Notes under the pieces: model-generated
What the model was told of the DNA's origin: nothing
The model's input: the letters and a program-made list of their open reading frames with translations, nothing else
Database searches by the model: none
Position numbers and translations under genes: made by a program
DNA from: Bacteroidia bacterium
Lineage (GTDB): Bacteria > Bacteroidota > Bacteroidia > SpSt-205
Direction: 5' to 3'
Assembly: GCA_026003215.1 (NCBI GenBank)
Contig: BPGV01000001.1
Span: 1,303,089 to 1,367,088, forward strand
Length of the DNA stretch: 64,000 nt
Shown here: piece by piece, positions 1,097 to 64,000 of the stretch
How positions within the stretch are numbered: position 1 is the stretch's first letter
Layout: the number at the start of each line of letters is the position of its first letter

Positions 1097-1104
1097 TATC
1101 TTTG
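1097..1104 (+). promoter_or_regulatory. Bacteroidota sigma70 -7 element
   Basis: TATCTTTG, 4 nt before ATG 1109. Confidence 0.7.
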
Positions 1105-1108
1105 CTGC

Positions 1109-3469
1109 ATGAGCCGTGTGAAAGAGGCAAAGCTCCCCGGCCACCTCACCCGCGAAGCTATATTACAGGATTACCGCATAGCTCACCTAAGCCGACAGCT
1201 AAGCCTCATCGGCCGCAAAGAGGTCCTTACCGGCAAAGCTAAGTTTGGCATCTTTGGCGATGGCAAAGAGCTACCCCAGCTGGCTATGGCGCATGCTTTT
1301 CAGCCGGGGGACTTCCGCTCAGGCTACTACCGCGACCAGACCTTCATGCTGGCGGCAGGCCTACTTACCCCCGAGGAGTTTTTTGCCCAGCTGTATGCCC
1401 ATACCGACTTGACTGCAGAGCCGGCGTCTGGCGGCCGCCAGATGAATAACCACTTTGCGACGCCTTTCTTGAATACTCAAGGACAGTGGCTTCCCCAGGC
1501 TTCTCGGAAAAATGTCGTTTCAGATGTCTCCCCTACCGCCAGCCAAATGCCCCGTTTAGTGGGTTTAGCGTGGGCTTCGGTACTGTACCGCAAGCTGCCC
1601 GAGCTGGCGACTCTGGTAGCGTTTTCGCAGAATGGCAACGAGATTGCTTGGGGCACGATTGGAGATGCCAGCACCAGCGAAGGTCTCTTTTGGGAAGCCA
1701 TAAATGCCCTGGTCGTCTTACAGGCCCCCGCTATCGTTTCCGTATGGGACGATGGGTATGGGATTTCCGTTCCCGTGGAATACCAAACCGCCAAAGGCAG
1801 CATCTCCGAAGCTTTGGCCGGCATGCGCTCCGAAAAGGGCAAACCCGGACTCAGCCTCTATGTAGTAAAAGGCTGGGACTATCCCGCTTTGATAGAAACT
1901 TACCTTAAGGCAGCCGAGCGGGTTCGTCGACTGCATGAGCCGGCTCTTATCCATGTGGTAGAGCTCACACAGCCCCAAGGCCACTCTACCTCCGGCAGCC
2001 ATGAACGCTATAAGTCCCCCGAAAGGCTAACCTGGGAACGGGAATATGATGGACTGGTACACTTTCGCCGCTGGATCCTTGAGCAAGGACTCGCCACCGA
2101 GCAAGAACTGGACACGATTGAAGAAGAAGCCCGAGAAGCCGCCCGTACCGCCCAAAAGCACGCATGGGAAGCCTACCTCACCCCCATCCTCCAGTTCAAG
2201 GAAGAAGCACTCGCCCTCACCCCTCCTTCCCCGGAGAGAGAAGCTCTCGCCAAACTCAAGCCCGTCACCTACCGAGAGGTCTTAGAAAGTGTGCATGTGG
2301 TGCTTAGACGCTATCGCAGCTTTCCCGAGCGAGCCAAACTCCTTCACTGGTACAAGGAGTACTATGCCGACTTGGAGAGCCGCTACGACACTTGGCTTTA
2401 CCGAGGTACCGCCTTAGAAGTACCGCCTGAGCCCCCTCGCTACCCCGCCAATCCGGACCGGGTAGAGGGGTTTCGTATCCTAAATGCCGCCTTTCGGGCA
2501 GCCCTCCAACGCGACCCACGCGTGGTGATTTTCGGCGAAGATGTCGGCAAGCTGGGCGACGTCAATCAAGGATGTGCTGGTCTGCAAGCGGAATTTGGAG
2601 AGCTGCGGGTAGCCGACACAGGCATTCGCGAAGCTACTATCATCGGCCAGGGGATTGGCTTAGCCTTGCGAGGCCTACGCCCCATCGCCGAAATCCAATA
2701 CTTGGACTATCTCCTGTATGCTGTCCAAATTCTCTCCGATGATGTAGCTCCCCTCTCCTGGCGCACGGTAGGTCAGCAAAAGGTGCCGCTTATCGTCCGC
2801 ACGCGAGGGCACCGCTTGGAAGGTATATGGCATTCGGGTTCGCCTATGCAGCTCCTCTTAGGAGCCTTGCGCGGCATGTACATCCTCGTGCCTCGCAATA
2901 TGACCCAGGCCACAGGCATGTACAATACCCTCTTAGCCGCCGACGAACCCGCCCTCCTTATTGAGGTGCTGAATGGGTATCGCCTGCGCGAACCCCTCCC
3001 GGAAAATATCGCAGAACTTAAGGTGCCTTTAGGCGTGCCAGAGATACTCCGAGAGGGCACCGATATTACGGTAGTCACTTATGGCGCTACCTGCCGGATC
3101 GTTTTAGAAGCAGCCGAGGCCTTGGCAGAGTTAGGAGTCTCTTGTGAAGTGATAGATGCACAGACCCTCCTACCCTTTGATGTGCCGGGGGTGATTGGGG
3201 ACTCTTTACGAAAAACGGGCCGTATCGCCTTCATAGACGAAGACGTCTCCGGCGGTGCCACAGCCTACATGATGTGGCAGGTCTTGGAGCGACAAAAAGG
3301 CTACTACTGGTTAGACTCCCCGCCCTTGACTATTCCGGGGAAAGACCATCGGCCCGCCTACGGCTCCGATGGCGACTACTTCTCTAAGCCTAACCGAGAA
3401 GAGATTATAGAAGCGCTTTATGCACTGATGCACGAAAGCGACCCCGACCGCTATCCCCCCCTATTTTAG
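1109..3469 (+). CDS. Branched-chain 2-oxoacid dehydrogenase E1, fused alpha/beta subunits (TPP-dependent)
   Basis: [11 protein letters not shown] motif, [31 protein letters not shown]; 786 aa fusion typical of Bacteroidota. Confidence 0.9.
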
Positions 3470-4311
3470 GCAGGGCGTATTTTGAGGCTGATATCTAATG
3501 CCCGGGCCGAGTGGGTGAGACTACCGGCCGAGATATACTGAGCACCAGCTTCAGCGTAAGCCCGAGCATTTTCGGGAGTAATGCCCCCCGATACTTCCAC
3601 TGGCAAACGTCCGCCAATATATTCTACCGCTCGTGCTACCTGGTCCGGCCGAAAGTTGTCTAAGAGCAGGCGGTCTATCCGGTCCGCATAGCCTAAAGCC
3701 GCATGGATCTCCGGCAGGTTTCGCACTTCTACCACGATAGGAGCGGAGAGACCCTGGGCTTCTTTATACCGGAGGACCGCTTCAATCGCCGGGGCCACCC
3801 CGCCCGCCAAGTCTATGTGGTTGTCCTTAATGAGAAACTGGTCATACAAGCCCAAGCGATGATTGACCCCACCTCCTATTTGTACAGCCCACTTCTCCAA
3901 GGCTCGCCATAAGGGGGTAGTCTTACGTGTATCTAATATATGACAGGGAGTACCCGCCACCGCCTCCACATACCGACGAGTAAGGGTAGCAATCCCACTG
4001 AGCCGCTGTAACAGATTCAATACCAGGCGTTCCCCCACAAGGAGGGTGTAAGCTTTTCCGTACACCTCAAAGGCTATTTGACCCGAAGAAAAGCGCTCCC
4101 CGTCAGACATGTGTTTCTCAAAAGTTACACCACTGTCAATAAGACGATACACCTTTTCAGCCCATTGTACGCCTGCCAGCACGCCAGTGTCTTTTAGGAT
4201 ACACCTACCGTGGGCATACTTTTGGGTGGCGGATACCGCTAAGCTGGTGATATCGCCTGAACCCACATCTTCTTGGAGGGCCGCCTCTATGAGGGCTTCT
4301 ATGCTCAGCAT
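3466..4311 (-). CDS. nadC: Nicotinate-nucleotide diphosphorylase (carboxylating)
   Basis: [37 protein letters not shown]; start placed at ATG 4311. Confidence 0.95.
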
Positions 4312-4314
4312 GCC

Positions 4315-4322
4315 CAAAAATA
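4315..4322 (-). promoter_or_regulatory. -7 element of nadC
   Basis: TATTTTTG on minus strand, 3 nt before ATG 4311. Confidence 0.65.
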
Positions 4323-4814: not shown

Positions 4815-4822
4815 TACTTTTG
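4815..4822 (+). promoter_or_regulatory. -7 element
   Basis: TACTTTTG, 4 nt before ATG 4827. Confidence 0.7.
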
Positions 4823-4826
4823 CTGC

Positions 4827-6398
4827 ATGGTTCAAGTAGAGGCGTTAGAAGCCTTACGAGCCACTGCTCGGAACGGTGGTGGTGAGAAAGCCCACGCTCG
4901 CCAAGCTGCACAAGGCAAGTGGTCCGCCCGCCAGCGTATAGACTACCTCCTGGATAACCCCGACGAAGCCATAGAAATAGGCCTCTTAGCCGGCCACGAA
5001 CTGTATGAGGAAGCGTGTCCTGCCGGAGGCGTGGTAGTAAAAGTCGGCAAAGTACAGGGGATTCCGTGTGTGATTGTCGCCAACGACGCTACCGTCAAAG
5101 CCGGCGCATGGTTCCCTATTACCGCTAAGAAAAACCTTCGGGCCCAAGAAATAGCCATGCAAAACCGGCTCCCTATCCTCTACCTTGTGGATAGCGCAGG
5201 CGTGTATCTCCCCATGCAAGATGAGGTTTTCCCGGATAAAGAGCACTTCGGGCGCATCTTCCGCAATAATGCTGTCATGAGCGCCATGGGCATACCGCAA
5301 TACGCCGCTATCATGGGGCCGTGTGTGGCAGGCGGAGCGTACCTCCCGATTATGAGCGATGAGGCTATCATTGTGGAGAAAACAGGTTCTGTGTTTCTGG
5401 CGGGCCCTTACTTAGTCAAAGCCGCTATTGGAGAAGAAACCGACACCGAGACGCTGGGAGGCGCACGCACTCACTCGCAAATCTCCGGCGTCACAGATTA
5501 TCAAGCGCGTAATGACCAAGAAGCCCTGGACATCCTCAAAAGATTGGTAGCGCAGACCCAACGCCGAAGCTCTTTCCGCTGGGAACGCCAGCCGGCCCGC
5601 CCGCCACGCATTCCGCCCGAGAAAATCCCCGAGCTTTTACCCCCCGACCCTACACGCCCTTACGACATGTACGCCATCATAGAGGCCCTCATAGATGAAG
5701 GCTCCTTCACCGAGTATAAGACCGGCTACGGCAAAACCATCATCACGGGCTACGCCCGGATTGAAGGTTGGCCCGTAGGTATCGTAGCCAACCAACGCAC
5801 CGTCGTCAAATCCGCCCGAGGCGAAATGCAGTTTGGCGGCGTCATCTACTCCGACTCTGCCGATAAAGCCACCCGCTTCATCCTCAACTGCAACCAAAAG
5901 CAAATCCCTATCGTTTTCCTCCAAGATGTCACGGGCTTCATGGTAGGCACCCGCGCCGAACACGGCGGCATCATAAAAGATGGCGCCAAAATGGTCAATG
6001 CCGTCGCCAATAGCGTCGTGCCTAAATACACCGTGGTAGTGGGTAACTCTTACGGCGCGGGCAACTACGCCATGTGTGGAAGGGCCTACGACCCACGCCT
6101 AATGGTTGCTTGGCCGACTGCCCGTATCGCTGTCATGGGCGGCACCCAAGCCGCTCAAACCCTCCTCCAAACCTACAAACGTGGCCAAAAGCTTGCCCCT
6201 GAAGAAGAACAAGCCCTCCTCAAAGAGATCCAAAGCCGTTATGAACGCCAAATGAACCCCCTCTATGCCGCCGCTCGCCTCTGGATAGACGAACTCATCC
6301 TCCCCCACGAAACCCGCAAATACCTCTCCCTCATGATAGAAGCCGCCGAATGGGGCTACGAACCCCAACCCTTCCCCGTGGGCGTCATCCAAACTTGA
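4827..6398 (+). CDS. Acyl-CoA carboxylase beta (carboxyltransferase) subunit, methylcrotonyl-CoA carboxylase-like
   Basis: ANDATVKAG, LVDSAG, GPCVAGGAY, LQDVTGFMVG, GNYAMCG motifs. Confidence 0.9.
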   Translation: MVQVEALEALRATARNGGGEKAHARQAAQGKWSARQRIDYLLDNPDEAIEIGLLAGHELYEEACPAGGVVVKVGKVQGIPCVIVANDATVKAGAWFPITAKKNLRAQEIAMQNRLPILYLVDSAGVYLPMQDEVFPDKEHFGRIFRNNAVMSAMGIPQYAAIMGPCVAGGAYLPIMSDEAIIVEKTGSVFLAGPYLVKAAIGEETDTETLGGARTHSQISGVTDYQARNDQEALDILKRLVAQTQRRSSFRWERQPARPPRIPPEKIPELLPPDPTRPYDMYAIIEALIDEGSFTEYKTGYGKTIITGYARIEGWPVGIVANQRTVVKSARGEMQFGGVIYSDSADKATRFILNCNQKQIPIVFLQDVTGFMVGTRAEHGGIIKDGAKMVNAVANSVVPKYTVVVGNSYGAGNYAMCGRAYDPRLMVAWPTARIAVMGGTQAAQTLLQTYKRGQKLAPEEEQALLKEIQSRYERQMNPLYAAARLWIDELILPHETRKYLSLMIEAAEWGYEPQPFPVGVIQT

Positions 6399-6989: not shown

Positions 6990-7025
6990 CTAAAAGCTCG
7001 GCCCTTTTCCCTAATATTGCCACCC

Positions 7026-8228
7026 ATGAAGCTCCACGAATATCAGGCTAAGGATTTACTGGAACAGTTAGGGTTGCCTGTGGCAGGCGGCAAGGTAGCT
7101 ACCACCCCCGAAGAAGCCGTAGCCGCTGCTAAGGCGATAGACCCAACAGGCAAAGGCCCCTGGGTACTCAAGGCTCAAGTGCATGCCGGCGGCCGAGGCA
7201 AAGCCGGCGGCGTCAAACTCGCTAAATCCTTAGATGAAGTGCGTACCCTCGCCTCCCAAATGATTGGCATGAAACTCGTCACCCCCCAAACTGGCCCCCA
7301 AGGCAAGGTCGTGCATAAAATCTTAGTCACAGGGGATGCTTTCTATCCGGGCCCTTCGCCGATACGGGAGTTTTATATAAGCCTTACTTTGGACCGGGCG
7401 GTGGGCCGGGATGTGCTGATTGCCAGCGCTGAAGGCGGCGTAGAAATAGAAGAAGTAGCCGCTACCCGCCCCGAAGCCATCCATAAGCTGCACATAAACC
7501 CCCTCACTGGCCTGATGCCTTACCAAGCCCGCCAGATTGCCTATGCCTTAGGCCTGACGGGCGAAGCCTTCAAAAATGCCGTGACCTTCCTCCTCCAACT
7601 CTATAAAGCTTACGATGCCTTAGACGCCAGCCTCCTGGAAATCAACCCCATGCTCAAAACTTCGGACGATAAGATTATCGCCTTGGACGCCAAGCTGGAA
7701 ATAGAAGACAACGCTCTCCCCATTCGGCATAAAGAGTTAGAAAGCTGGCGCGACATCCAAGAAGAAGACCCCTTGGAAACCGAAGCCCGCGAAGCCGGCC
7801 TCAGCTATGTAAAACTGGACGGCAATGTGGGCTGCATGGTAAATGGCGCCGGGCTCGCCATGGCGACCATGGATATCATTAAACTGGCAGGCGGCTGGCC
7901 CGCAAACTTCTTGGATGTAGGCGGCGGCGCCAACGTAGAACGCATCGCAAAAGCCTTCCAAATCCTCCTCAAAGACCCAGGCGTAAAAGTGATACTCATC
8001 AACATCTTTGGGGGGATTGTGCAATGTGACCGCGTGGCAAACGGCATCCTTCAAGCGTACAAGCTGATTGGGCATATACCTGTGCCTATGGTCGTACGTC
8101 TCCAGGGCACCAACGCGGACATTGCAGCGCAGATTCTGCGGGAGTCGGGCCTCCCAATCATCCCAGCCGTAGAGCTCTGGGAAGCCGCCCAAAAGGTACA
8201 AGAGGCCCTTCGGCAGGTTACTGCCTAA
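7026..8228 (+). CDS. sucC: Succinyl-CoA synthetase beta subunit
   Basis: MKLHEYQAK, KAQVHAGGRGKAGGVK, NGAGLAMATMD, NIFGGI. Confidence 0.97.
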   Translation: MKLHEYQAKDLLEQLGLPVAGGKVATTPEEAVAAAKAIDPTGKGPWVLKAQVHAGGRGKAGGVKLAKSLDEVRTLASQMIGMKLVTPQTGPQGKVVHKILVTGDAFYPGPSPIREFYISLTLDRAVGRDVLIASAEGGVEIEEVAATRPEAIHKLHINPLTGLMPYQARQIAYALGLTGEAFKNAVTFLLQLYKAYDALDASLLEINPMLKTSDDKIIALDAKLEIEDNALPIRHKELESWRDIQEEDPLETEAREAGLSYVKLDGNVGCMVNGAGLAMATMDIIKLAGGWPANFLDVGGGANVERIAKAFQILLKDPGVKVILINIFGGIVQCDRVANGILQAYKLIGHIPVPMVVRLQGTNADIAAQILRESGLPIIPAVELWEAAQKVQEALRQVTA

Positions 8229-9612: not shown

Positions 9613-10493
9613 GCGGCCTTGCCTAAGACCCGCGCTACGGTGCGACCAATCTCGGCGGGGCTTTCTACCACATGGACCCCACACTTGGCCAAGAAGTCCA
9701 TTTTCTCCTTAGCACCGCCCTTGCCTCCCGCGATAATGGCACCTGCATGGCCCATGCGACGCCCCGGCGGCGCTGTCTGCCCTGCAATAAAGGCTATTAC
9801 GGGCTTAGTCCCATGGTCACGGATCCATTCACCCGCTATCTCCTCATCTGTACCCCCAATCTCCCCTATCATCACGATCGCTTCCGTGCCAGGATCTTCC
9901 ATAAGCAGCTTGATAATATCTAAATGCTTAGACCCCACGATCGGGTCCCCTCCAATGCCCACACAAGTAGATTGGCCCAAGCCGACCTGCGAAATTTGAT
10001 GCACCGCCTCGTAGGTAAGGGTACCTGAACGGCTTACTACCCCTATCGTCCCCGGCCGATGAATAAAGCCGGGCATAATCCCGATTTTACACTGCCCCGG
10101 CGTTATAACTCCCGGGCAGTTGGGCCCAATCAGGCGCACATGGGGATAGTCACTTTGCAATACATACTTGACTCGCAGCATATCCCGCACCGGCACCCCA
10201 TCTGTGATTGCCACAATCAGCCTTATCCCAGCGGCAGCAGCCTCTAAGATAGCATCAGCCGCCCCAGGCGCCGGCACAAAAATAATAGAGGCCTCAGCAC
10301 CGGTCGTCTCTACGGCTTCTCGCATCGTATTAAAGACGGGCAGGCCCAAGTGCGTGGTACCGCCCTTGCCAGGCGTGACCCCGCCTACCACCTTAGTGCC
10401 ATACTCCAGCATTTGCTGCGCATGGAAAGTACCCTCTTTTCCAGTGAAACCTTGCACGAGTACTTTCGTATGGGCATCAACGAGGATAGCCAT
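9609..10493 (-). CDS. sucD: Succinyl-CoA synthetase alpha subunit
   Basis: [30 protein letters not shown]; start ATG 10493. Confidence 0.97.
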
Positions 10494-10498
10494 CGCCG

Positions 10499-10506
10499 CA
10501 AACCTA
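10499..10506 (-). promoter_or_regulatory. -7 element of sucD
   Basis: TAGGTTTG, 5 nt before ATG. Confidence 0.7.
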
Positions 10507-10570: not shown

Positions 10571-12334
10571 TTACGGGTTGAGGGCGGCCTTAAACTCAGC
10601 CGACTCCCGCTGCTTGCGAAACTCAAGGTCGCCTTGGGCCTTCTTGGCCAGGTCTTTGTTGGCCTGGACAGCCCGACGCAGATTCGTCACGAGGAGGTTA
10701 TTGTCCGCCGAACGGGCCCCGACAATCGCCAGCACATAATAGGCCAAAGCATTATTGGGGTTCTGCTGTATGGCTTTTTCCAGCTCTACCTTGGCGCCGG
10801 CCAGGTCATTCATGAGGAGACGAGACAAGCCCGCGTTGTAATGAGCGCCGGGGAGGTCGCCGGCATTGCCAAAGGCCTCAGCAGCGGCGGCATACTGGGC
10901 AGTCTTCTCATAGATGACCCCTAAGTTGAAGGCTGCTTCCGGTGTAGGACGCGCCGCATACGAAGCTTGGAAAGCTTGGGCCGCTTGGGCATATTCCTTA
11001 CGAGCCGCATATACTAAGCCCATATTGTTGAGTACCGCAGGATTATTCGGCGAATATTGATTGGCCGTATTCAAGTAGTCCATCGCTTCATCCAGTCGGC
11101 CTCCTAACACCGCCAACGCCCCCAGGTCATTGAGTGCCCGATGGTCTTGGCCATATCGGCTGGTATAGGCCTTGAGAAGCCGTTCCCGACGCGCATTATC
11201 TTGCTGGCGGGTAGTAGCAAAGTACAGCTCTTCTTGCGCAAGGGCATTCAACAAGGCTTCTTGGGTGATAGAACCGGCCAGGAAAGCATTGGCAATACTG
11301 TCTATCTGTTCATCCGAGAGACGGCCCGAGAACCCCTCCAGCCGTACCTGCGTACGACGCAGCGGCGCCAACATAAACTCTACTTCTTTGGGGCCCCCGA
11401 CCAATGCCATCACTTTTTGTTCCTTGGCGTCGGGATTCATGTTAGAGGCAATCACCTGGATAACTTGTTGTTTGACATTCTCGGGGAGGGAAGTCTGGTT
11501 CAGGTTGGCCTTGAAGCCTTCCCAGTCTTGGGGCGTAGCAGATACTTTAAAGAAAGAGCTGTCTAAGTACTCCTTGTAGCCTTCTTTGCGCATCTGTTCA
11601 ATCAACCACTTTTGTACTTCCTTATAGCGATTGAGGGAGAGGAACTGATTGCGCTTGAATCGCCCCTCCGGCGAAGCATACCCCGCCAACGTCACCGATG
11701 TAGCCGGGTACTTCTTTTGGAGGAAAGCCGCAATATCTTTTACCGCTTGACGCTCGTATTCCCCCGGCTGGATGAGGTACACATTTTGTGGGAACTGGAA
11801 GAGCGCTTCCAGCGTAATAGGCCGCTTAGAAGTGTAGGTATGCTGTTCAAAAAGCGCATAGGGCCGAGAATCTACCAAGCGCGAAGTGGTGATGCAGCAG
11901 GGCGCTAAATCAAAGTCCGGCAAATCAAAACTCTTGCCTTTCCGTTCATAGCTATTCTCCGCCACAAACATACCTCCATCCATCCCCTCCTGAAAAGCGA
12001 AGATACCTTGCTTGCCAATAGTGACCCCCTCATTTTTCAGTTGTTTCTTAGGATACTGGTCGGAGGAGATGGTTACCGTGCTTACTTCATACCGATTGTT
12101 CCCACTTTTTACCACCAGCTTACCGTTGTAAGTAGACTTACGACGGAAGCCAGATTTCGGGGGAACCGTCACTTTTACACTGTACTTGACGGAATCGGCA
12201 TGGACTTCTAAGGGATTAGGATTTACCGTTACAACGGTACCCTTAAACTTTGCGCACTGGGTAAGGACACCTATGCTCAGGAAGGCTAAGGAAGCCGCTC
12301 TACCCAGCTGGCTCAGAAATGGTTTGGCTCGCAT
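10571..12334 (-). CDS. Lipoprotein with OmpA-like domain and C-terminal TPR repeats
   Basis: Lipobox-like LTQC; GYASPEG...N..LS..R OmpA-like motif; multiple TPR helices (ALNDLG, VLNNMG, AAFNLG). Confidence 0.75.
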
Positions 12335-12423
12335 AAGCGTGTGTTTTTAGGTTCCGCTGCAAAGGTAGGCTTTTTTCATAGAAAAAGCGTCATCCCCTTG
12401 TAAGGCGAGCAGGGGGTTTGCGG

Positions 12424-12431
12424 TACCTTTG
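12424..12431 (+). promoter_or_regulatory. -7 element of valS
   Basis: TACCTTTG, 4 nt before ATG 12436. Confidence 0.7.
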
Positions 12432-12435
12432 TTCC

Positions 12436-15051
12436 ATGGAGAGTCGGTACCAACCCCAAGAGATTGAGGCGCACTGGCGAGATACATGGGCAGCCCACCG
12501 GCTTTATCAAAGCACCCCTGATACGCGCCCCTCTTATACGATAGTCATGCCCCCCCCGAATGTCACCGGCGTCCTGCACATGGGCCACGTGCTCAATAAT
12601 ACCCTTCAAGATGTGCTGGCCCGCTACCACCGCCTCAAAGGGTACAATGTGTGCTGGGTGCCGGGTACCGACCACGCCTCCATCGCCACCGAAGCCAAAG
12701 TCGTCCAGCGCCTCAAAGCCCAAGGCATAGACAAAAGAAGCATAGGCCGAGAAGCCTTCCTCCAAGAAGCCTGGAAATGGACCGAAGAACACGGCGGGAT
12801 CATCGTAGAACAGCTCAAAACCTTAGGGGTAAGCGCCGACTGGAGCCGATATCGTTTCACCTTGGACCCGCCCCTCTATCAGGCTGTGCTCAAGGCCTTC
12901 GTCCGCCTCTACGAAGAGGGCCTCATCTACCGAGGCAAGCGCATGATTCACTGGGACCCTGTCGCCCTCACCGCCCTCTCCGATGAAGAGGTTATTTATA
13001 AGGAGCACGAATCCCAGCTGGTATATGTGCGGTACCCCGATGAAAATGGCGACTACTTGGTAATCGCCACGGTGCGTCCAGAGACGATTTTAGCGGATGT
13101 GGCGGTGGCCGTCCATCCCGAAGACGAACGCTATCGCGCTTGGATAGGGCGCCGCGTGCGCGTCCCGCTTACCGACCGGTGGGTCCCCGTGATTGCCGAT
13201 GAAGCCGTAGACCCCACCTTTGGCACAGGCTGCCTCAAAGTTACCCCTGCCCATGACCCCAAAGACTACGAAATCAGCCTGCGCCACAACCTGCCCATTA
13301 TAGATATATGCACGCCCACCGCCCACCTCAACGAAGCCGCCGGCCCCTTCACTGGGCTGAGCCGGGAAGAAGCCCGTACCCGTATCACCCAAGCCTTATC
13401 CGAAGCCGGCCTCTTAGAAAAAACAGAACCCTATCGCCACAGCGTAGGCCATTCCGAACGCACAGACGCCGTGGTGGAGCCTCGCCTCTCAGAGCAGTGG
13501 TTTGTGCGCATGAAGCCCTTAGCTGAGCTGGCCTTAGCCGCTGTGGAAAAGGGCGAAATACGGCTGGTACCAGAGCGATTCCTGGCTACGTACCGCCACT
13601 GGCTGGAAAATGTGAAAGATTGGTGCATCTCGCGCCAGCTGTGGTGGGGCCATCGCATTCCCGCATGGTATGCGCCTGATGGCGTCGTCTTCGTCGCCCT
13701 CACCGAAGAAGAAGCCCACCAAAAAGCCCAAGCCGCCGGCTACGACCCCACCACCCTCCGCCAAGACGACGATGTCTTAGATACCTGGTTCTCCTCTTGG
13801 CTGTGGCCCCTGAGCGTATTTGACTTCTTCGAAAATCCAACTAACCCAGACTTTCGCTACTACTACCCCACCCAAGTACTTGTCACTGCGCCCGAAATCC
13901 TCTTTTTCTGGGTGGCTCGCATGATTATGGCGGGGTATTACTTTGCTGGGGAAAAACCCTTTTCGGTGGTCTATCTCCATGGCATCGTACGCGATAAGCT
14001 CCGCCGCAAAATGAGTAAATCCTTAGGCAACTCGCCTGACCCCTTAGATCTTATCGCTACCTACGGCGCAGATGCGGTACGTTTAGGTGTGCTTATGAGT
14101 GCCCCCGCTGGGAATGACCTCCTCTTTGATGAAGCCCTCTGCGAAAATGGAAAAAACTTCTGCAATAAGCTCTGGAATAGCTTCCGACTCTTACACCTCT
14201 GGCGGGAAAAAGCGGAAGATACCGCCCCTACCCCCCTCCAAGAATCGGCTTACACTTGGTTTTCTCTGCGCCTGCGCTACCTCCAAGAAGAAATAGAAAC
14301 CCTCCTCCAAGAGTATCGGTTCTATGAAGCGGTGCATACCTTATACCGCACTACTTGGGAGGACTTTTGCAGTTGGTATTTAGAAGCGCTCAAACCTGCC
14401 CCTCCCCGCGCCCTGCTGCAAAAAGTAGAGACGCAAGCCCTTCACCTACTTACGCTCCTCCACCCCTTTGTGCCGTTTATCACAGAAGAGCTGTGGCACC
14501 AGCTTACAGGACGCCCTGAGCGAGAAAGCCTCAGCTGGGTCGCCCTTCCTCCAACCCAGCCGCTTTCTGCCGAAGAAAAAGCCCACTTAGAAGCAGTAGC
14601 ATACATCCAAGAAGTGATTACACGCCTGCGCGGCTTGCGTCAAACCTTCGGACTCAAAGATGCCCTTCGCTTACATATCCAGACTGCTCGTCCCGCTGAC
14701 ATTCAGCCGCTCCTCTCTTGGATAGCCCATTTCCTCCCCATAGCAGACCTACAACTGGCCGAAGAACCCTACGCAGGTCCAGCGCTGCGCATGGTCTTCC
14801 GCAGCGAAGTATTCTATATAGAAGCCCAAGGGGATGCCTCTACCTGGCGACAAATGCGCGAAAAACTCCAAAAAGACCTTCTCCATGCCGAAAACTTCCT
14901 CCGCCAAATAGAATCTAAGCTCAACAATCGCAACTTCACCCAAAATGCCGCTCCTGAGGTAGTAGAACGCGAAAGGAAAAAATGGGCAGACACCCACGCC
15001 CGTAAAAAGCTCTTAGAAGAGCAAATTCAAGCCTTAGAAAGCTTCGTATGA
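12436..15051 (+). CDS. valS: Valine--tRNA ligase
   Basis: PPPNVTGVLHMGH, DWCISRQLWWGH, KMSKS, C-terminal coiled coil. Confidence 0.97.
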   Translation: MESRYQPQEIEAHWRDTWAAHRLYQSTPDTRPSYTIVMPPPNVTGVLHMGHVLNNTLQDVLARYHRLKGYNVCWVPGTDHASIATEAKVVQRLKAQGIDKRSIGREAFLQEAWKWTEEHGGIIVEQLKTLGVSADWSRYRFTLDPPLYQAVLKAFVRLYEEGLIYRGKRMIHWDPVALTALSDEEVIYKEHESQLVYVRYPDENGDYLVIATVRPETILADVAVAVHPEDERYRAWIGRRVRVPLTDRWVPVIADEAVDPTFGTGCLKVTPAHDPKDYEISLRHNLPIIDICTPTAHLNEAAGPFTGLSREEARTRITQALSEAGLLEKTEPYRHSVGHSERTDAVVEPRLSEQWFVRMKPLAELALAAVEKGEIRLVPERFLATYRHWLENVKDWCISRQLWWGHRIPAWYAPDGVVFVALTEEEAHQKAQAAGYDPTTLRQDDDVLDTWFSSWLWPLSVFDFFENPTNPDFRYYYPTQVLVTAPEILFFWVARMIMAGYYFAGEKPFSVVYLHGIVRDKLRRKMSKSLGNSPDPLDLIATYGADAVRLGVLMSAPAGNDLLFDEALCENGKNFCNKLWNSFRLLHLWREKAEDTAPTPLQESAYTWFSLRLRYLQEEIETLLQEYRFYEAVHTLYRTTWEDFCSWYLEALKPAPPRALLQKVETQALHLLTLLHPFVPFITEELWHQLTGRPERESLSWVALPPTQPLSAEEKAHLEAVAYIQEVITRLRGLRQTFGLKDALRLHIQTARPADIQPLLSWIAHFLPIADLQLAEEPYAGPALRMVFRSEVFYIEAQGDASTWRQMREKLQKDLLHAENFLRQIESKLNNRNFTQNAAPEVVERERKKWADTHARKKLLEEQIQALESFV

Positions 15052-19622: not shown

Positions 19623-19626
19623 AGGG

Positions 19627-23593: not shown

Positions 23594-23597
23594 GCTC

Positions 23598-39718: not shown

Positions 39719-39735
39719 ACCGTTACCTTAGGCCT

Positions 39736-47386: not shown

Positions 47387-47390
47387 ACCA

Positions 47391-47444: not shown

Positions 47445-47447
47445 TCT

Positions 47448-48464
47448 ATGTCCATGGCTCCCCTCTCGCTCCCTATGCGTGTATTTTACTTCCTCAGTCG
47501 GATCGGCCTTATCCAAGATACCGGCCAAAAAAGCCTTGCGCAAAGAATACTCGTAGCCTGGTCCCTCCTCACTAAGAAGCGCCTATACACAAAAGCCATC
47601 GTACCCAGCGTCTTTCTCACTGCTTTACGAGTACTATTAGGTAAAACACGCCACAAGTTTCTTCTACCGCAACCAATAGATTTAGATATTTTACCCAGCA
47701 ATCTTGCCAGTTTAGGAGAAGTCTATGCATATTTTCGCCTTGTCAGCGTAAGCCCTGAACATAATAAGCTTGTTTGGGAAGTGGGGCCTAATTGGCATCT
47801 CATTACCCATACCGATTATGGCCAGGATATCGCCGTTATGCGGGAAGTTTTCCTACAAAAAGTGTATGGAGCGCACTATAACGGCCTTCAAGTAATAGAC
47901 ATAGGCGCCTATCACGGGGAAACTATGCTTTTTTTCTTGTGGCAGGGATGTCAATCCATAGTCGTAGTAGAACCGTACCCACCGGCCGTGAAGCGGATTG
48001 AAGAGCTTGTTAGGATAAATAATCTTGACAAAAAAGTGCGCTTATTTCCCGTGGCTGTTGGTAAAGAAAACGGCGAAAGCTGGCTTCTTGTCTCGCCTAA
48101 TGACCTCCTATCTAACGCTCTACAAAATGAACATCCTAACCAGGCACCCACCACCTTTTCCGAAAAAATAGTTGTTCCCGTCTGGACCTTTTCCCGACTA
48201 ATCGAAGAAATAGGCTGGGATGCCGTAGATGTGGCAAAGGTAGACTGCGAAGGGGGCGAATACGCTATCCTCCTCCATACCCCCCCAGAAATCCTTAAGC
48301 GAGTCAAGGTTTGGGTTGTGGAGTTTCATAAGGGGGCTGGGCTACTGGTAGAAAAATTTAGGGAAATGGGCTATGAAGTAGCGTGGGAAGAGCGCCCCGA
48401 CAAGGTGGGCATGCTCCGCGCCTGGCAGCCCGGGGCTAAGCTGCCTTGGGACCATGCTCGGTAA
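47448..48464 (+). CDS. FkbM family methyltransferase
   Basis: VIDIGAYHG, VEP, KVDCEGGEY, VEFH. Confidence 0.85.
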   Translation: MSMAPLSLPMRVFYFLSRIGLIQDTGQKSLAQRILVAWSLLTKKRLYTKAIVPSVFLTALRVLLGKTRHKFLLPQPIDLDILPSNLASLGEVYAYFRLVSVSPEHNKLVWEVGPNWHLITHTDYGQDIAVMREVFLQKVYGAHYNGLQVIDIGAYHGETMLFFLWQGCQSIVVVEPYPPAVKRIEELVRINNLDKKVRLFPVAVGKENGESWLLVSPNDLLSNALQNEHPNQAPTTFSEKIVVPVWTFSRLIEEIGWDAVDVAKVDCEGGEYAILLHTPPEILKRVKVWVVEFHKGAGLLVEKFREMGYEVAWEERPDKVGMLRAWQPGAKLPWDHAR

Positions 48465-49102: not shown

Positions 49103-50356
49103 TTAGCCTTCCGGCGCTTCTACCCAAGCCAAGTGTTTTTTGCCCCGCTGTACTAACCAAAAGCGCCCCCGCACCGGGGAAAAGGTTGAGAGAGGGACCT
49201 CGCCGCCTGGCACCCGCTGACGATTGATAGCGAGCCCCCCTTGTTGGATAAGCTGCCGCCCCTCCGACTTCGAGCGAAAAAAACCACTCTGCACCAAGCC
49301 CTCCAATAGGGGGACTTCGCGGGAAGGCACCTTATATAGGGGCATCTCTCGCAGGATTTGCTGAAAAAGGGCTTCGGGGAGCGCCTCCAGCTGGGCAAAG
49401 TCCCCTGTGCCAAAAACGACTTCTGACACCACTTGCACGCTGCGAGCGGTCTCCTCCCCGTGAATGCGGGCAGTCATCTCGTAGGCCAGCACCCGCTGCG
49501 CTAACCGTTTTTCCGGAGCCTCCTCATGCTTTTGGAGCAGCTCTTCTATTTCTACCTCCGATTTCCAACTAAAAACATAGAGCAGTTTAGGTATATCTGC
49601 ATCCGATTGGTTGAGCCAAAACTGATAAAATCTATAGGGAGAAGTGCGTTCTGACGAAAGCCAGATATTTTCTCCGCCTTCTGTTTTGCCAAACTTGGTT
49701 CCATCGGCTTTTGTAAGGAGGGGGCAAGTCATACCATAAACTTCCTCCCCGGTGAGCTTGCGGATAAGCGCTATTCCCGTAGTGATGTTGCCCCACTGGT
49801 CTGCGCCTCCTATTTGGAGCCGGCACCCATATCGGCGAAAAAGCGCATAAAAGTCATACGCTTGCAGGAGCGGATAGCTAAACTCCGTAAAAGAAATTCC
49901 GCTTTCTAACCGACTTTGGATAGTTTCTTTGGCCAGCAGGTAGCTTACGGTCACATGCTTCCCCACATCCCGCAAAAAATCCAAAAGAGCAAAGGAGCCC
50001 AGCCAAGAGAAGTTATCCACAAGCGTAAAGGGGAAAGGGAGAAGTTTTTGGAGTTGGGCAGCTAAGGCTTGGGCGTTGGCTTCCACGACTTCGGCGGGGA
50101 GGAGGGGGCGTTCGGATTTTTTACCCGAGGGGTCACCGATGCGAGCGGTGGCGCCTCCCACCAACACTATGGGCTGGATGCCCAGCTGCGCCAGGTGATA
50201 AAGCAGCTGGAGGGGCACCAGGTGGCCGATATGCAGCGAGTCGGCTGTGGGGTCTATGCCTACATAAGCCGCACCTATGGCTTGAGGAGTCTCGGGTAAA
50301 GGAGTGGCGTCTTGGATAAGGTGACGCTTACGCAAAGGCTGGAGCCAGTCCGCCAC
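49103..50356 (-). CDS. tyrS: Tyrosine--tRNA ligase
   Basis: GIDPTADSLHIGH, QIGGADQWGN, KFGKT, C-terminal S4 domain; GTG start at 50356. Confidence 0.95.
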   Translation of the reverse strand: MADWLQPLRKRHLIQDATPLPETPQAIGAAYVGIDPTADSLHIGHLVPLQLLYHLAQLGIQPIVLVGGATARIGDPSGKKSERPLLPAEVVEANAQALAAQLQKLLPFPFTLVDNFSWLGSFALLDFLRDVGKHVTVSYLLAKETIQSRLESGISFTEFSYPLLQAYDFYALFRRYGCRLQIGGADQWGNITTGIALIRKLTGEEVYGMTCPLLTKADGTKFGKTEGGENIWLSSERTSPYRFYQFWLNQSDADIPKLLYVFSWKSEVEIEELLQKHEEAPEKRLAQRVLAYEMTARIHGEETARSVQVVSEVVFGTGDFAQLEALPEALFQQILREMPLYKVPSREVPLLEGLVQSGFFRSKSEGRQLIQQGGLAINRQRVPGGEVPLSTFSPVRGRFWLVQRGKKHLAWVEAPEG

Positions 50357-50360
50357 GAGG

Positions 50361-50368
50361 CAAAGGTA
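50361..50368 (-). promoter_or_regulatory. -7 element of tyrS
   Basis: TACCTTTG, 4 nt before GTG 50356. Confidence 0.7.
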
Positions 50369-50402
50369 CTCGTTGCATAGACTAAAAATCGTACTTTGGC
50401 GA

Positions 50403-50924
50403 ATGCACGCTCTCCCCAACCTCTCCGCAGAAGAGATGCTTGCGGCGCTTGAAGAGAGCCGTTCTGTGCTGCTCGCCGCTATAGCGGATGAGCCGTGGTT
50501 TTGGGTGCGCCCTGCCCCAGAGAAGTGGGCACCGGCTGAGATTGTGGAGCACATCGCTCGGGTAGAGGAATCGGCGGCTCGGGTCTTGCGGCGGCTGCGT
50601 CGGGAAGCGGCCGGCGAAACGCTCCCCCCACCCCAAGTGGCCCCTGGCACCTTCAAAGACGGAAAGCCGCAGGCTCCGCCCATCGTCCAGCCCAAAGGCG
50701 GCCTCTCCTTTGACGAGCTATTGCAGCTTCTCCACCAGAGCCGCCAACACCTTTTAGAGGAAGTGCGAGCTTTTGATTTTTCCTATGGGGGACGTTTCCC
50801 TCACCCTTTTTACGGCCCCATCACGGGGAAAGAATGGCTGGCCTCCCTCGTCCCGCACGAACCCCATCACCTCCAGCAGCTACTGGCTTGTAAGCCCAGC
50901 GCTGCTCCTGGTACCTTTGCGTAA
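50403..50924 (+). CDS. DinB family protein
   Basis: W.PAEIVEHI, HPFYG, H..HH..Q metal-binding pattern. Confidence 0.85.
   Translation: MHALPNLSAEEMLAALEESRSVLLAAIADEPWFWVRPAPEKWAPAEIVEHIARVEESAARVLRRLRREAAGETLPPPQVAPGTFKDGKPQAPPIVQPKGGLSFDELLQLLHQSRQHLLEEVRAFDFSYGGRFPHPFYGPITGKEWLASLVPHEPHHLQQLLACKPSAAPGTFA
50912..50919 (+). promoter_or_regulatory. -7 element inside the 3' end of the DinB gene
   Basis: TACCTTTG, 4 nt before ATG 50924. Confidence 0.6.
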
Positions 50925-51760
50925 TGCAGCCGTATGAGACCTTCCCGCCAGGCAGCGCCGAAACCTGGCTTGCGCTGATAGAAAAAGAGCTGGGGGGGCC
51001 GCCGCCGGCCGGCCTACCCCAGCCCTTCTATACGCGGTCAGATGTGCCTGCGTGGGGAAACCTCGCTCCCCTGCCTATCCCCAGCGGATGGACCCTCGTA
51101 GCAGAACGCTTCCTCCCCAACGAAGTAGGGGTATGGTTGTACGATGCCCGCTTCATAGAAGAAGGGCAGGCTGCCCCCGAGTGGATAATCGCTGAGGTGC
51201 CCCCCACCCTGCCGAGCTGGGGGCGGGGCTATCAGCTTTTACTCCCGGGCGCTTCACCCATAGATGGGCTTATTCCCGTGTGGGAAGTACCCTTCCGGCT
51301 TTCCCCCGACTTAGAAGTAGAAGGGAAGCCGCTTTCTTTGCCCCAAGACGAAGCGCTCCATATAGCGGTGCGCTTGGACCAGCGCGTCTTGCATAGTGTC
51401 CTTTTACTGCGGGCCCTCCGGCTGGCGCTTCTACCCCGTTCAGTTACGATATGGGCTTGGCCGAAACCCACTTTGTACGAACCTTCCGGCCTCCTCGCTA
51501 CGGAAGGTCCCGAAGAGAACCTCATACGCGCCACCTTGTATGCGTTAGGCAGCCTCTTGGGAGGCACGCAGCGCCTCTACATCCCGCCTATTTTCTCTCC
51601 AGAAGATAGCCATGCTGCCCGATGGAGCCGTGCCATAAGCCTTATCCTCCAGCACGAAGTAGCCTACTTGTACGAGACCAGCGACCCTTTAGCCGGCAGC
51701 TTCTACATAGAAGCCGAAAGTCGTCGTATAGCCGAGCATATCCGTACTTTGCTTCTGTGA
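50924..51760 (+). CDS. Methylmalonyl-CoA mutase small-subunit-like protein, strongly shortened
   Basis: FPP...W...IEKEL.G, NLIRAT..ALGSLLGG, DPLAGSFYIE. Confidence 0.65.
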   Translation: MQPYETFPPGSAETWLALIEKELGGPPPAGLPQPFYTRSDVPAWGNLAPLPIPSGWTLVAERFLPNEVGVWLYDARFIEEGQAAPEWIIAEVPPTLPSWGRGYQLLLPGASPIDGLIPVWEVPFRLSPDLEVEGKPLSLPQDEALHIAVRLDQRVLHSVLLLRALRLALLPRSVTIWAWPKPTLYEPSGLLATEGPEENLIRATLYALGSLLGGTQRLYIPPIFSPEDSHAARWSRAISLILQHEVAYLYETSDPLAGSFYIEAESRRIAEHIRTLLL

Positions 51761-59534: not shown

Positions 59535-60209
59535 ATGTGGGATTGGGTTTTCCCGCCCCTATGTGCCTCTTGCGCAGCACCGCTTCTCCCTGAAGAAAAA
59601 GAAGTATGCTTACGGTGCCTCCTGCGCCTACCGCAAACCCTCTTTTGGCGTAACCCCACCCACAATGAAGCTTACTATCGCTTAGCGCCGCATGCCCCTA
59701 CCCTGCATGGGGCCATAAGCGGATTTTGGTATGTAGAGGGAAGTCCGCTAAGACGATGGGTTCAACTGGCTAAATACCACAACCAACCCGAAGCCTTGTA
59801 TGGAGCAGCTTATTTTTTAGGGAGTCTCCTTCGGCAGGAAGGGATTGTTCCATTTCCCTCGTGGAAGGCGCTACTGGCTGTGCCGATTTCGGAAGCGCGG
59901 TTACGACGGCGGGGGTACAATCAAGCGGAATGGGCGGCCCGAGGCTTAGCCCAAGCGCTGGAAGTGCCCCTCCTTACAGGCCGGTGGCGTCGCCAGCATG
60001 CTACCACTTCTCAGGTAGCCAAAGGGCGGATCCAACGCTGGACCTCTATGGAAGGGGAGTTTATATGCGTAGGGCCTATTCCTTCTCCGGTAGCGGTGGT
60101 AGATGATGTCCTTACCACGGGCGCCACGCTCTCCGCCGCCCTACAAAGCTTACCCCCTGAAACCCACGTATGGGTAGTGACGGTAGGGATTACTCAGCGT
60201 CGCCGCTAA
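59535..60209 (+). CDS. ComF family phosphoribosyltransferase-like protein
   Basis: CxxC...CxxC, RRRGYNQA, VVDDVLTTGATL. Confidence 0.88.
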   Translation: MWDWVFPPLCASCAAPLLPEEKEVCLRCLLRLPQTLFWRNPTHNEAYYRLAPHAPTLHGAISGFWYVEGSPLRRWVQLAKYHNQPEALYGAAYFLGSLLRQEGIVPFPSWKALLAVPISEARLRRRGYNQAEWAARGLAQALEVPLLTGRWRRQHATTSQVAKGRIQRWTSMEGEFICVGPIPSPVAVVDDVLTTGATLSAALQSLPPETHVWVVTVGITQRRR

Positions 60210-60214
60210 CTTTG
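60207..60214 (+). promoter_or_regulatory. -7 element of pdhB, overlapping the comF stop codon
   Basis: TAACTTTG, 4 nt before ATG 60219. Confidence 0.65.
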
Positions 60215-60218
60215 CCCC

Positions 60219-61202
60219 ATGGCTACTATGCAGTTTCGGGAGGCCCTCCGCCAAGCCCTCCGGGAAGAGATGCACCGAGACCCTCGCGTGTTCCTCATGG
60301 GGGAAGAAGTCGGCGAATACAACGGCGCCTACAAAGTGAGTGAAGGCCTCTTAGCCGAGTTTGGCCCTAAGCGGGTGATAGATACGCCTATTTCGGAGTT
60401 AGGGTTTGCGGGGATAGGGGTAGGGGCCGCCATGGTTGGGCTCAGACCCGTGATTGAGTTTATGACCTTCAACTTTGCGCTCTTAGCCATAGACCAAGTA
60501 GTCAATCATGCCGCCAAGATGCTGCACATGAGCGGGGGCCAGTTTTCGGTGCCTATTGTGTTTCGGGGCCCCAGCGGTTCGGCCGGGCAGCTGGCGCAGC
60601 AACATTCCCAATCTTTTGAAAACTGGTACGCCAACGTCCCGGGCCTCAAAGTAGTCTCCCCCAGCACCCCCCGAGACGCCAAAGGCCTCCTCAAAAGCGC
60701 TATTCGGGACGATGACCCCGTGCTCGTCATGGAGTCAGAACTGATGTATGGCATGAAAGGGGAAGTGCCTGAATCAGAAGATTTTCTCATTCCTATTGGG
60801 CAAGCGGATATAAAGCGGGAAGGGTCGGATGTGACGATTGTATGTTTCGGCAAAATGGTGCATGTGGCGTTGGAAGCGGCAGCCCTGTTGGAAAAAGAAG
60901 GGCTTTCCGCCGAAGTGATAGACCTACGGAGCTTGCGCCCCATAGACTATGCTACTATAATCGCTTCGGTACGCCGTACCAACCGCATGGTGGTAGTAGA
61001 AGAGTCCTGGCCACTTGGGGGCATGGCTGCCGAAGTAGCGTTTATGGTCCAAAGACATGCTTTTGATTACTTAGATGCGCCGATAGTACGGATTACGGGG
61101 GCAGATACGCCGATGGCTTATGCACCCACGCTGGTAGAAGCGTATTTACCCAATCCCCGCCAGGTGATTGAAGCGGCTAAGTATGTAGCCTACCAGCTAT
61201 AA
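60219..61202 (+). CDS. pdhB: Pyruvate dehydrogenase E1 beta subunit
   Basis: GEEVGEYNGAYKV, DTPISE.GF, EFMTFNF, QHSQ, DLRSLRP. Confidence 0.93.
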   Translation: MATMQFREALRQALREEMHRDPRVFLMGEEVGEYNGAYKVSEGLLAEFGPKRVIDTPISELGFAGIGVGAAMVGLRPVIEFMTFNFALLAIDQVVNHAAKMLHMSGGQFSVPIVFRGPSGSAGQLAQQHSQSFENWYANVPGLKVVSPSTPRDAKGLLKSAIRDDDPVLVMESELMYGMKGEVPESEDFLIPIGQADIKREGSDVTIVCFGKMVHVALEAAALLEKEGLSAEVIDLRSLRPIDYATIIASVRRTNRMVVVEESWPLGGMAAEVAFMVQRHAFDYLDAPIVRITGADTPMAYAPTLVEAYLPNPRQVIEAAKYVAYQL

Positions 61203-63796: not shown

Positions 63797-63805
63797 ATAG
63801 CCCGG

Positions 63806-63835
63806 CAAAGGTACAATAGAAATCGCATACTTTTG
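63806..63835. promoter_or_regulatory. Divergent pair of -7 elements
   Basis: Minus TACCTTTG (63813-63806) 9 nt before ATG 63796; plus TACTTTTG (63828-63835) 5 nt before ATG 63841. Confidence 0.65.
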
Positions 63836-63840
63836 TCTAT

Positions 63841-64000
63841 ATGGCTAAGCTCTTAGCCGCGATAGACTATAGTGAAGCTGCCGCCTCGGCTGTCCGAGCG
63901 CTTTTGCCGCTACGCCGCAGCCTCCAAGACACCCTTATACTCTACCATGCTTACCAAATCCCGCGAGGGTTGCCCTTTCTTTCAGCCCATGTGATAGAAC
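63841..64000 (+). CDS. Universal stress protein (truncated by window edge)
   Basis: MAKLLAAIDYSEAA...LILYHAY USP N-terminal pattern. Confidence 0.75.
   Translation, partial: MAKLLAAIDYSEAAASAVRALLPLRRSLQDTLILYHAYQIPRGLPFLSAHVIE

Follow-up and report, generated by a model that had tools for sequence, protein, structure and literature searches.

The DNA analyzed here is a stretch of 64,000 bp (the window), which corresponds to bases 1,303,089-1,367,088 of the single-contig genome (2,268,343 bp, 54.7% G+C) of a Bacteroidia bacterium (GenBank assembly GCA_026003215.1). It carries, among others, the genes nadC, sucD, valS, frr, efeU, tyrS, miaB and pdhB, and the element in question is the octamer TAnnTTTG (the box), which lies a few nucleotides upstream of the start codons of many of these genes. 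A sequence-only reading of the window had listed 17 genes with a perfect box 3-5 nt and six genes with a near-match 3-6 nt before the start, and had proposed that most transcription units, including valS, tyrS, frr, sucD and pdhB, give rise to leaderless mRNAs. An Rfam scan of the window revealed no family reaching its gathering score.

After each start had been read again, a perfect box was found in front of all 17 starts (17/17), with a gap of 4 nt in twelve cases, of 3 nt in two (4311 and 47448) and of 5 nt in three (10493, 37396 and 63841), and all of these starts (17/17) were in frame with a coding open reading frame (ORF). The six near-matches proved to be one-mismatch boxes at the distances given (6/6), and the names of the five genes listed above as leaderless were confirmed by NCBIfam profiles. 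Two details were missing from that reading: the start of tyrS at 50356 is GTG rather than ATG, and miaB (ATG at 54587), with a perfect box at 7 nt, is a further case. All these positions are collected in Table 1, together with one gene that has a different arrangement.

Table 1. Perfect and one-mismatch (1 mm) boxes in front of start codons in the window; positions run over the box and the start codon, and the last column gives the alignment of the product to its profile
Position	Strand	Box	Gap (nt)	Start codon and gene	Profile or remark
1097..1111	+	TATCTTTG	4	ATG, fused E1 alpha-beta 2-oxoacid dehydrogenase gene (1109-3469)	profile from residue 6
4309..4322	-	TATTTTTG	3	ATG, nadC (3466-4311)	TIGR00078, residues 8-278 to profile 2-269
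4815..4829	+	TACTTTTG	4	ATG, acyl-CoA carboxyltransferase, mmdA-like (4827-6398)	TIGR01117, residues 4-500 to profile 3-488
7012..7028	+	TAATATTG (1 mm)	6	ATG 7026	
10491..10506	-	TAGGTTTG	5	ATG, sucD (9609-10493)	NF004230, residues 1-291 to profile 1-289
12332..12367	-	TACCTTTG	25	ATG 12334, 587-aa gene	counter-example, A-rich spacer
12424..12438	+	TACCTTTG	4	ATG, valS (12436-15051)	TIGR00422, residue 1 to profile 1
19620..19634	-	TAACTTTG	4	ATG, frr (19059-19622)	TIGR00496
21647..21661	-	TACCTTTG	4	ATG, E2 acyltransferase gene (20288-21649)	NF004309, residue 1 to profile 2
23586..23600	+	TACCTTTG	4	ATG, 663-aa protein (23598-25589)	no family match
25677..25691	+	CACCTTTG (1 mm)	4	ATG 25689	
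33513..33528	-	TACCTTAG (1 mm)	5	ATG 33515	
36553..36567	-	TTTATTTG (1 mm)	4	GTG 36555, 1000-aa ORF	
36569..36583	+	TAAATTTG	4	ATG, TPR protein (36581-37300)	
37383..37398	+	TACCTTTG	5	ATG, efeU (37396-38238)	NF041756, residues 6-268 to profile 3-251
38255..38269	+	TATCTTTG	4	ATG, GWxTD-domain protein (38267-39718)	
39724..39738	+	TACCTTAG (1 mm)	4	ATG 39736	
47384..47398	-	TATTTTTG	4	ATG 47386 (46202-47386)	weak match to homogentisate dioxygenase
47437..47450	+	TACCTTTG	3	ATG, FkbM-family methyltransferase (47448-48464)	
50354..50368	-	TACCTTTG	4	GTG, tyrS (49103-50356)	TIGR00234, residues 29-412 to profile 37-403
50392..50405	+	TACTTTGG (1 mm)	3	ATG 50403	
50912..50926	+	TACCTTTG	4	ATG 50924, 278 aa	
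54572..54589	+	TACCTTTG	7	ATG, miaB (54587-55984)	
60207..60221	+	TAACTTTG	4	ATG, pdhB (60219-61202)	NF006667, residue 1 to profile 1
63828..63843	+	TACTTTTG	5	ATG 63841	ORF runs beyond the window

The window contains 54 perfect boxes, as compared with 28.9 ± 6.1 in 100 shuffled sequences, none of which (0/100) reached 54, and 18 of the 54 abut the start of a long ORF, while fewer than one would be expected at the genome-wide background (about 1% of boxes per 6-nt bin, 19.2/1,698). Since some of the starts had admittedly been picked with the help of the motif, the pattern might be an artefact of motif-guided start choice, of base composition or of repeats. In a motif-centred count free of gene calls, in which for each box on both strands the nearest downstream ATG opening at least 100 codons was taken, the same peak was recovered. 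Genome-wide, a long-ORF ATG was present within 150 nt of 847 of the 1,698 boxes, and for 455 of these 847 it was located at 3-8 nt, against a background of 19.2 per 6-nt bin (at 20-55 nt), a distribution that departs from the leadered pattern typical of Bacteroidia. The gaps of 3, 4, 5, 6, 7 and 8 nt accounted for 30, 195, 87, 54, 50 and 39 boxes, respectively, and each later position for 10 at most. GTG starts peaked alike (122 at 3-8 nt, 66 of them at 4 nt; background 33.5), while no peak was detected genome-wide for TTG starts (30 at 3-8 nt, 3 at 4 nt) or for the CTG control (33 and 2). The restriction of the peak to ATG and GTG agrees with the prediction from a purine at the transcription start (+1) combined with leaderless initiation; in mycobacteria, too, leaderless starts are ATG and GTG and are not known to be TTG. 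One-mismatch boxes gave a smaller additional excess, the strongest being that of TAnnTTCG (57 vs 6.7). The composite pattern TANNTTTGNNNNATG had 223 matches in the genome, the reversed pattern 16; in addition, neither spacers nor flanks are constant among genes or among orthologs, and N-termini are fixed independently by homology. These controls refute the artefact explanation, to which we assign a practically negligible probability, and confirm that the abutting-box pattern is real and well beyond chance.

The correctness of the box-adjacent start codons is supported by the N-termini of protein profiles, by a switch in coding potential and by conservation among orthologs. Full-length NCBIfam profiles align from residue 1-8 of the predicted products of sucD, valS, pdhB, nadC, the mmdA-like gene, the E2 gene, efeU and the fused E1 gene, and the starts of frr, tyrS and miaB are compatible with their profiles. 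When started from GTG, TyrS is 8 residues shorter than its profile, and a start at the nearest ATG farther upstream would lengthen it by 109. The box-adjacent start is the first ATG of the ORF in 388 of 593 cases; among the others are the mmdA-like gene (ATG 4827, first ATG 4797) and the gene of the 663-aa protein (ATG 23598, first ATG 23559). For 196 box-adjacent genes whose ORF remains open for at least 25 codons upstream, the mean codon log-odds over 25 codons was -0.139 upstream and +0.139 downstream of the start, as compared with 0.18 inside genes. As to the dehydrogenase genes themselves, ORF 1109-3469 forms one 786-aa frame with an E1 alpha-like part (residues 6-355) and an E1 beta-like part (residues 458-774), and a separate pdhB is present at 60219-61202.

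The order to which the host belongs is represented in the genome collection by 18 species, 17 of them in the two genera of the host family and the remaining one in a sister family. The sucD orthologs of the 17 family genomes share 85-100% protein identity, and in 16 of them a perfect box precedes the ATG, at 4 nt in thirteen and at 5 nt in three; in the seventeenth the box at 4 nt has two mismatches. Between the genomes, both the spacer of 4-5 bases and the whole sequence upstream of the box vary. In most of them the box is directly abutted by a GC hairpin followed by a T-run, resembling the terminator of the preceding gene (window positions 10494-10545 of the minus strand in the host, where the box likewise sits directly behind it), and the T-run may serve at the same time as an A/T-rich upstream promoter element. 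Of 123 upstream stretches of this kind taken from the whole genome, 22 reach a folding energy of -15 kcal/mol or less, versus 6 of 123 shuffled ones. In the sister family the nearest box-like word is located about 24 nt upstream of sucD. A match to tyrS was obtained in 15 family genomes out of 17, and a box precedes its start by 4-7 nt in all 15, being perfect in nine and carrying one mismatch in six (mostly TAACTTCG), while the start codon is GTG in twelve and ATG in three.

The distribution of boxes over gene classes was analyzed with 1,948 gene models of at least 100 codons, obtained with a crude codon-bias ORF picker. A perfect box 3-8 nt before the in-frame start was present in 566 of the 1,948 models, and its frequency depended on the upstream neighbour: 281 of 628 genes (45%) with a divergent neighbour, which require a promoter of their own, 90 of 181 (50%) behind a same-strand gene at 30-99 nt, 58 of 223 (26%) at 100 nt or more, and 137 of 916 (15%) at less than 30 nt. 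With up to one mismatch allowed, 418 of the 628 divergent-neighbour genes carried the box, versus 120-155 in two position controls, which gives about 57% after correction. The sequence-only claim that most transcription-unit leaders are missing is about right at this chance-corrected, one-mismatch level, while the 45% with a perfect box shows that the majority is not overwhelming. Among genes free of the box the commonest spacing is the ATGA overlap (gap of -4: 201 genes, versus 6 box genes), and the upstream gap of box genes is almost always at least 9 nt, i.e., just enough room for the box. Two divergent arrangements in the window are worth describing separately: at 36553-36583 the starts lie 25 nt apart and their boxes overlap back to back (TAAATTTG on the plus strand and TTTATTTG on the minus strand), and in the divergent pair 47386/47448 there are 61 nt between the two ATGs.

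Such tight packing could itself generate the pattern, if the genes were mostly read from promoters farther upstream or by read-through, their mRNAs being leadered and the abutting box merely a by-product. The coding fraction of the genome, about 93%, would suit this explanation, as would the 137 box starts that follow a same-strand gene at under 30 nt and the 22 genes whose box provides, with its TAA or TAG, the stop codon of the preceding gene, e.g., frr (box 19627-19634, upstream ORF 19632-20285) and pdhB (box 60207-60214, upstream ORF 59535-60209). Moreover, contigs from the cDNA runs X16 and X17 span the sucD start from the upstream gene, but a contig over two genes does not demonstrate a single transcript. 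Read-through is not possible, however, for the 281 box-bearing genes with a divergent neighbour, and 302 of the other 347 genes of this class have no perfect box within 150 nt at all. In the 72 divergent pairs in which both genes are of the box type the median start-to-start distance is 49.5 nt, which leaves room only for two back-to-back boxes, and the terminator-like hairpin with the T-run directly before the sucD box in most family genomes also speaks against transcription from farther upstream. Packing alone explains neither a peak at 4 nt that is sharp to one base nor the restriction to ATG and GTG. We consider this explanation improbable.

The word TAnnTTTG is identical to the experimentally defined -7 element recognized by sigma-A of Bacteroidota (PMC6847099, PMC9723704, PMC7366714), which bears out its identification in the sequence-only reading. 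In Flavobacterium johnsoniae the box spans T-12 to G-5 and is separated by 4 or 5 nt from the mapped transcription start site, the promoter reads TAHHTTTG with G nearly absent at the two free positions, and AT-rich tracts at -18/-28 are more evident than a -33 element (PMC6847099). A fixed-register logo of the host genes with a 4-nt gap (n=200) displays much the same features: the two free positions are mostly C or T and seldom G, a clear A/T enrichment extends over -18 to -20, the -28 signal is weak (A in 66/200), and C or T occupies -1 in 163 of the 200 genes, followed by the purine of ATG. A pyrimidine at -1 followed by the A of ATG makes the usual pyrimidine-purine start context, and a 4-nt gap, combined with the spacing known from F. 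johnsoniae, makes the initial base of the start codon the +1 position. The earlier proposal that +1 falls on or next to the start codon agrees with this geometry, from which it is deduced, and the box probably works as a promoter in the host with the F. johnsoniae box-to-start spacing. The presumed reader of the box is encoded by rpoD, the sole gene in the genome with a Sigma70 region 3 match, whose 292-aa product is 66-71% identical to RpoD from many Bacteroidota orders (no closer match was returned among relatives); it appears to be a short primary sigma factor of the Bacteroidota type, lacking region 1.1 as judged from its length rather than from an alignment. No perfect box was found near rpoD itself.

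A different role for the same word would be that of a lineage-specific ribosome-binding or translation-enhancing signal, UAnnUUUG, situated in a longer leader and independent of Shine-Dalgarno (SD) pairing. Non-SD signals near the start codon are indeed known in Bacteroidota (group B of GeneMarkS-2, PMC6028130), and no -33 element is visible in the logo of the 200 genes, likewise in accordance with F. johnsoniae (PMC6847099). Yet this explanation leaves the identity of the word with the -7 box of the phylum unaccounted for. Other Bacteroidia sampled have the same word mainly 15-45 nt from their starts, and in the host it is three times commoner at promoter-requiring than at closely following genes, with the extreme of 6 versus 201 among overlapping genes. 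The word has no complementarity to the 3' tail of 16S rRNA, and neither the lack of TTG starts nor the preference for a pyrimidine at -1 would follow by itself from a signal acting in RNA. We regard such a role as very improbable. As for other possible parts of the signal, the T enrichment at +10/+13 was rejected, since it occurs in all gene classes and hence represents a general feature of N-terminal codons.

In no gene class of the host are SD-like words enriched: within -20..-4 they are found in 3% of the box-adjacent genes and in 11-12% of the other classes, as compared with 12-21% in a control stretch. The components whose inspection had been suggested earlier are all retained, i.e., the 16S rRNA ends with ...GGATTACCTCCTTTCT, including an intact CCUCC anti-SD, and bS21, S1 and IF3 are present; loss of ribosomal parts as the cause of the layout is ruled out. 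With the Pfam model of bS21, neither the controls from classical leaderless-rich bacteria (Thermus, Deinococcus and Corynebacterium) nor Thermotoga gave a match, and the presence of bS21 in the host means that its loss is not needed for a layout of the leaderless type. A reason for keeping the anti-SD while initiation is not led by SD is offered by prfB (around 152,480-152,650 of the genome contig, minus strand), where the SD-like AGGAGG is located three bases before the CTT TGA C site of +1 frameshifting; prfB itself has TACCTTTG 4 nt before its ATG. In rpsU, which encodes bS21 (around 1,779,200), the box precedes the ATG by 6 nt, with no SD and no room for one, while in rpsA an ATG and in infC a GTG follows the box at 7 nt.

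Beyond the host, all 17 family genomes (17/17) have 137-223 matches of TANNTTTGNNNNATG, as compared with 2-23 of the reversed pattern. The survey covered 30 relatives plus 400 further Bacteroidota genomes sampled evenly over the phylum, 100 of them from the same class, and no genome among the 400 equalled the family in this respect, the matches mostly amounting to 1-2 times the control; the largest number outside the family was 128 versus 33, in genome G128 of the same class. The distances of boxes to starts were compared in samples of individual genomes. In the first 200 kb of the host genome (G000), 44 of 180 boxes are at 3-8 nt, and in 200 kb of a representative of the second genus (G014) 43 of 151, with the same peak. 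In 184 kb of the sister family (G017), 21 of 188 boxes are at 3-8 nt, with a peak at 5-7 nt, and 18 are at 15-29 nt. Genome G283 of the same class (120 kb, 54 boxes) is also mixed, with 11 at 3-8 nt and 9 at 15-24 nt, and in G271, again of the same class (200 kb, 182 boxes), only 3 are at 3-8 nt and 30 at 15-44 nt. Three candidates for further trait-bearing lineages were rejected: G128, which in 163 kb has 6 of its 170 boxes at 3-8 nt, only 3 of them at 4 nt, without a peak there, and G233 (of another class; 7 at 3-8 nt) and G030 (of the same class; 4 at 3-8 nt), in which high ratios go with few boxes (28 and 26, each in 140 kb). A peak at 3-5 nt is not equally dominant in the Bacteroidota sampled outside the family, and two of the Bacteroidia among them have their boxes mainly at 15-45 nt. 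The trait is fullest and sharpest in the host family, partial in the sister family as well as at least one further lineage, and of minor extent in the rest; the sister family, with its 5-7 nt peak and leadered genes at 15-29 nt, may represent an intermediate state.

A growth temperature of about 63°C was estimated for the host from its proteome composition (by the IVYWREL formula, a rough estimator, applied to a small sample of genomes). The G+C content of 16S rRNA (60.6%) and the microbial mat label of the RNA run containing the organism also fit a thermophile. The estimates are about 60°C for the host family and for G017 and mesophilic for G283. With G017 hot yet mixed and G283 mesophilic yet mixed, heat alone is not sufficient, as far as a small sample and a rough estimator allow, and thermophily was rejected as the sole cause of the trait.

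Taken together, these results suggest that the promoter of the housekeeping sigma factor has moved up to the start codon and that the mRNAs of most independently transcribed genes are leaderless throughout the family, which we hold to be probable. The -7 box would end 4 nt (range 3-8) before ATG or GTG, and transcription would begin either with the first base of the start codon (A or G) or 1-4 nt ahead of it, leaving no usable leader. Initiation would then presumably proceed by direct recognition of the 5'-terminal AUG or GUG with the initiator tRNA, as in Actinobacteria, Deinococcus-Thermus and archaea, the RNAs being translated from their very 5' end, and the A-rich leaders of other Bacteroidia would not be used.

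Several points weigh against this conclusion. Leaderless status is an inference from promoter geometry, and gaps of 5-8 nt, found for 230 of the 455 boxes, would leave 1-4 leader bases, making these genes 'near-leaderless'. The logo has no -33 element. Where the upstream gene is less than 30 nt away, as for 137 box starts, the upstream half of the promoter lies inside coding sequence, and some of these promoters may not fire. The gene models are crude, which makes the percentages approximate, and with bS21, S1 and IF3 in place the ribosome displays no obvious adaptation. The gene at 12334 is by the position of its box, 25 nt upstream, a leadered gene of the usual Bacteroidota kind. The RNA data consist of assembled contigs, from which RNA starts cannot be read, of a microbial-mat metatranscriptome (X1, 0.33 of words) and of several small cDNA-like runs; of the 20 X1 contigs, the 8 listed include no informative one for a box-adjacent start. 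At 12337, 3 nt before ATG 12334, an X1 contig terminates in an Illumina adapter, and no box fits this end, which we take for a fragment or processing end, counting neither for nor against leaderless transcription. As to the smaller runs, contigs of X16, X17 and X2 (10138-12291, 18251-19733, 20882-21285) carry template-switch/SMART-type primer tails at their ends, and the runs look like cDNA or primer-amplified libraries.

In evolutionary terms, it appears likely that in an uncultured, thermophilic branch of Bacteroidota at the level of an order leaderless mRNAs have replaced A-rich leaders as the default for initiation, with an independent and relatively recent origin and with living intermediates. 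The switch would include genes of translation itself (rpsU, rpsA, infC, prfB, frr, valS and tyrS), while the standard parts of the Bacteroidia ribosome (bS21, S1, IF3 and the anti-SD) would have been kept through it. What look like intermediate states are seen in the sister family and in at least one mixed lineage of mesophiles. Among bacteria, Bacteroidia serve as the textbook example of disregard for SD combined with the use of leaders, and leaderless mRNAs are few in all three species whose transcription starts have been mapped; if roughly half or more of the units are leaderless throughout a family, as it appears, the initiation mode of the phylum is not fixed. It would add a third bacterial lineage with leaderless dominance, one with mixed-state relatives for comparison, and, if the switch is real, its evolutionary route and any adaptation of the ribosome or initiation factors could be reconstructed. 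On the practical side, gene finders and annotators that expect leaders will misplace starts in the family genomes, in which promoter prediction becomes almost trivial, and TAnnTTTG-N4-ATG represents a compact expression cassette of interest for Bacteroidota genetics.

Literature data are in line with the exceptional position of the family: 3.7% of 5' untranslated regions are shorter than 10 nt in Bacteroides thetaiotaomicron, with a median of 32 nt (PMC7366714), 5.5% of mRNAs are leaderless in F. psychrophilum, with a median leader of 24 nt (PMC9723704), and 87% of leaders exceed 10 nt in F. johnsoniae (PMC6847099), so that short leaders are few in all three mapped species, and the refuting observation named in the sequence-only reading was not encountered. 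A survey of 2011, by its own warning confined to Pribnow-like promoters, reported a single genome with leaderless genes (2.4%) among 37 of Bacteroidetes/Chlorobi (PMC3160421), and GeneMarkS-2 placed 408 of 450 Bacteroidetes/Chlorobi genomes (90%) in the non-SD leadered group B (PMC6028130). A paper of 2017 (PMC5397173) took an AT bias upstream of genes as a hint that leaderless mRNAs might abound in Bacteroidetes, which later transcription maps of model species did not bear out. Our literature search on leaderless Bacteroidota/Bacteroidetes found no report of a lineage in which this mode is dominant.

With the leadered Bacteroidota, i.e., F. johnsoniae, B. thetaiotaomicron and F. psychrophilum with their A-rich 'Kozak-like' initiation, the host shares the -7 box, and with other Bacteroidota the short RpoD and a 16S CCUCC that is kept though mRNAs lack SD. 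The avoidance of G at the free box positions and the A/T enrichment near -18 are common to the host and F. johnsoniae (PMC6847099), and the AGGAGG-stimulated +1 frameshift site of prfB is kept (compare PMC10798248). They differ in leader length, which has a mean or median of 24-33 nt with 3.7-13% short leaders in the mapped species, while the modal box gap of the host is 4 nt, and in rpsU, which in many Flavobacteriales carries an extended autoregulatory SD (PMC9976891, PMC13000453) and in the host has no SD. Archaea of group D (Haloferax, Sulfolobus) resemble the host in a leaderless majority and a promoter at a fixed distance from the start, but theirs is a TATA/BRE promoter about 26 nt upstream, used with the archaeal initiation machinery (PMC6028130), which limits the likeness to an analogy. 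The closest counterpart is group C, comprising Actinobacteria (M. tuberculosis) and Deinococcus-Thermus (D. deserti), where, as in the host, a -10-type box stands at a fixed short distance from the starts of first-in-operon genes and leaderless genes have no SD. In that group 25-50% of operons are predicted to be leaderless, and 167 of 262 doubly mapped genes are so in D. deserti (PMC6028130); the corresponding estimate for the host is 45-57% of promoter-requiring genes. Group C uses a Pribnow TANNNT box and SD in its leadered genes, whereas the host box is TAnnTTTG, presumably read by a short sigma-A, and the remaining host genes are also devoid of SD; bS21, present in the host, was not found by the same search in Thermus, Deinococcus and Corynebacterium. 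The mechanism is of a known kind, leaderless expression, here apparently brought about by the Bacteroidota promoter in a phylum in which it has not previously been described as dominant.

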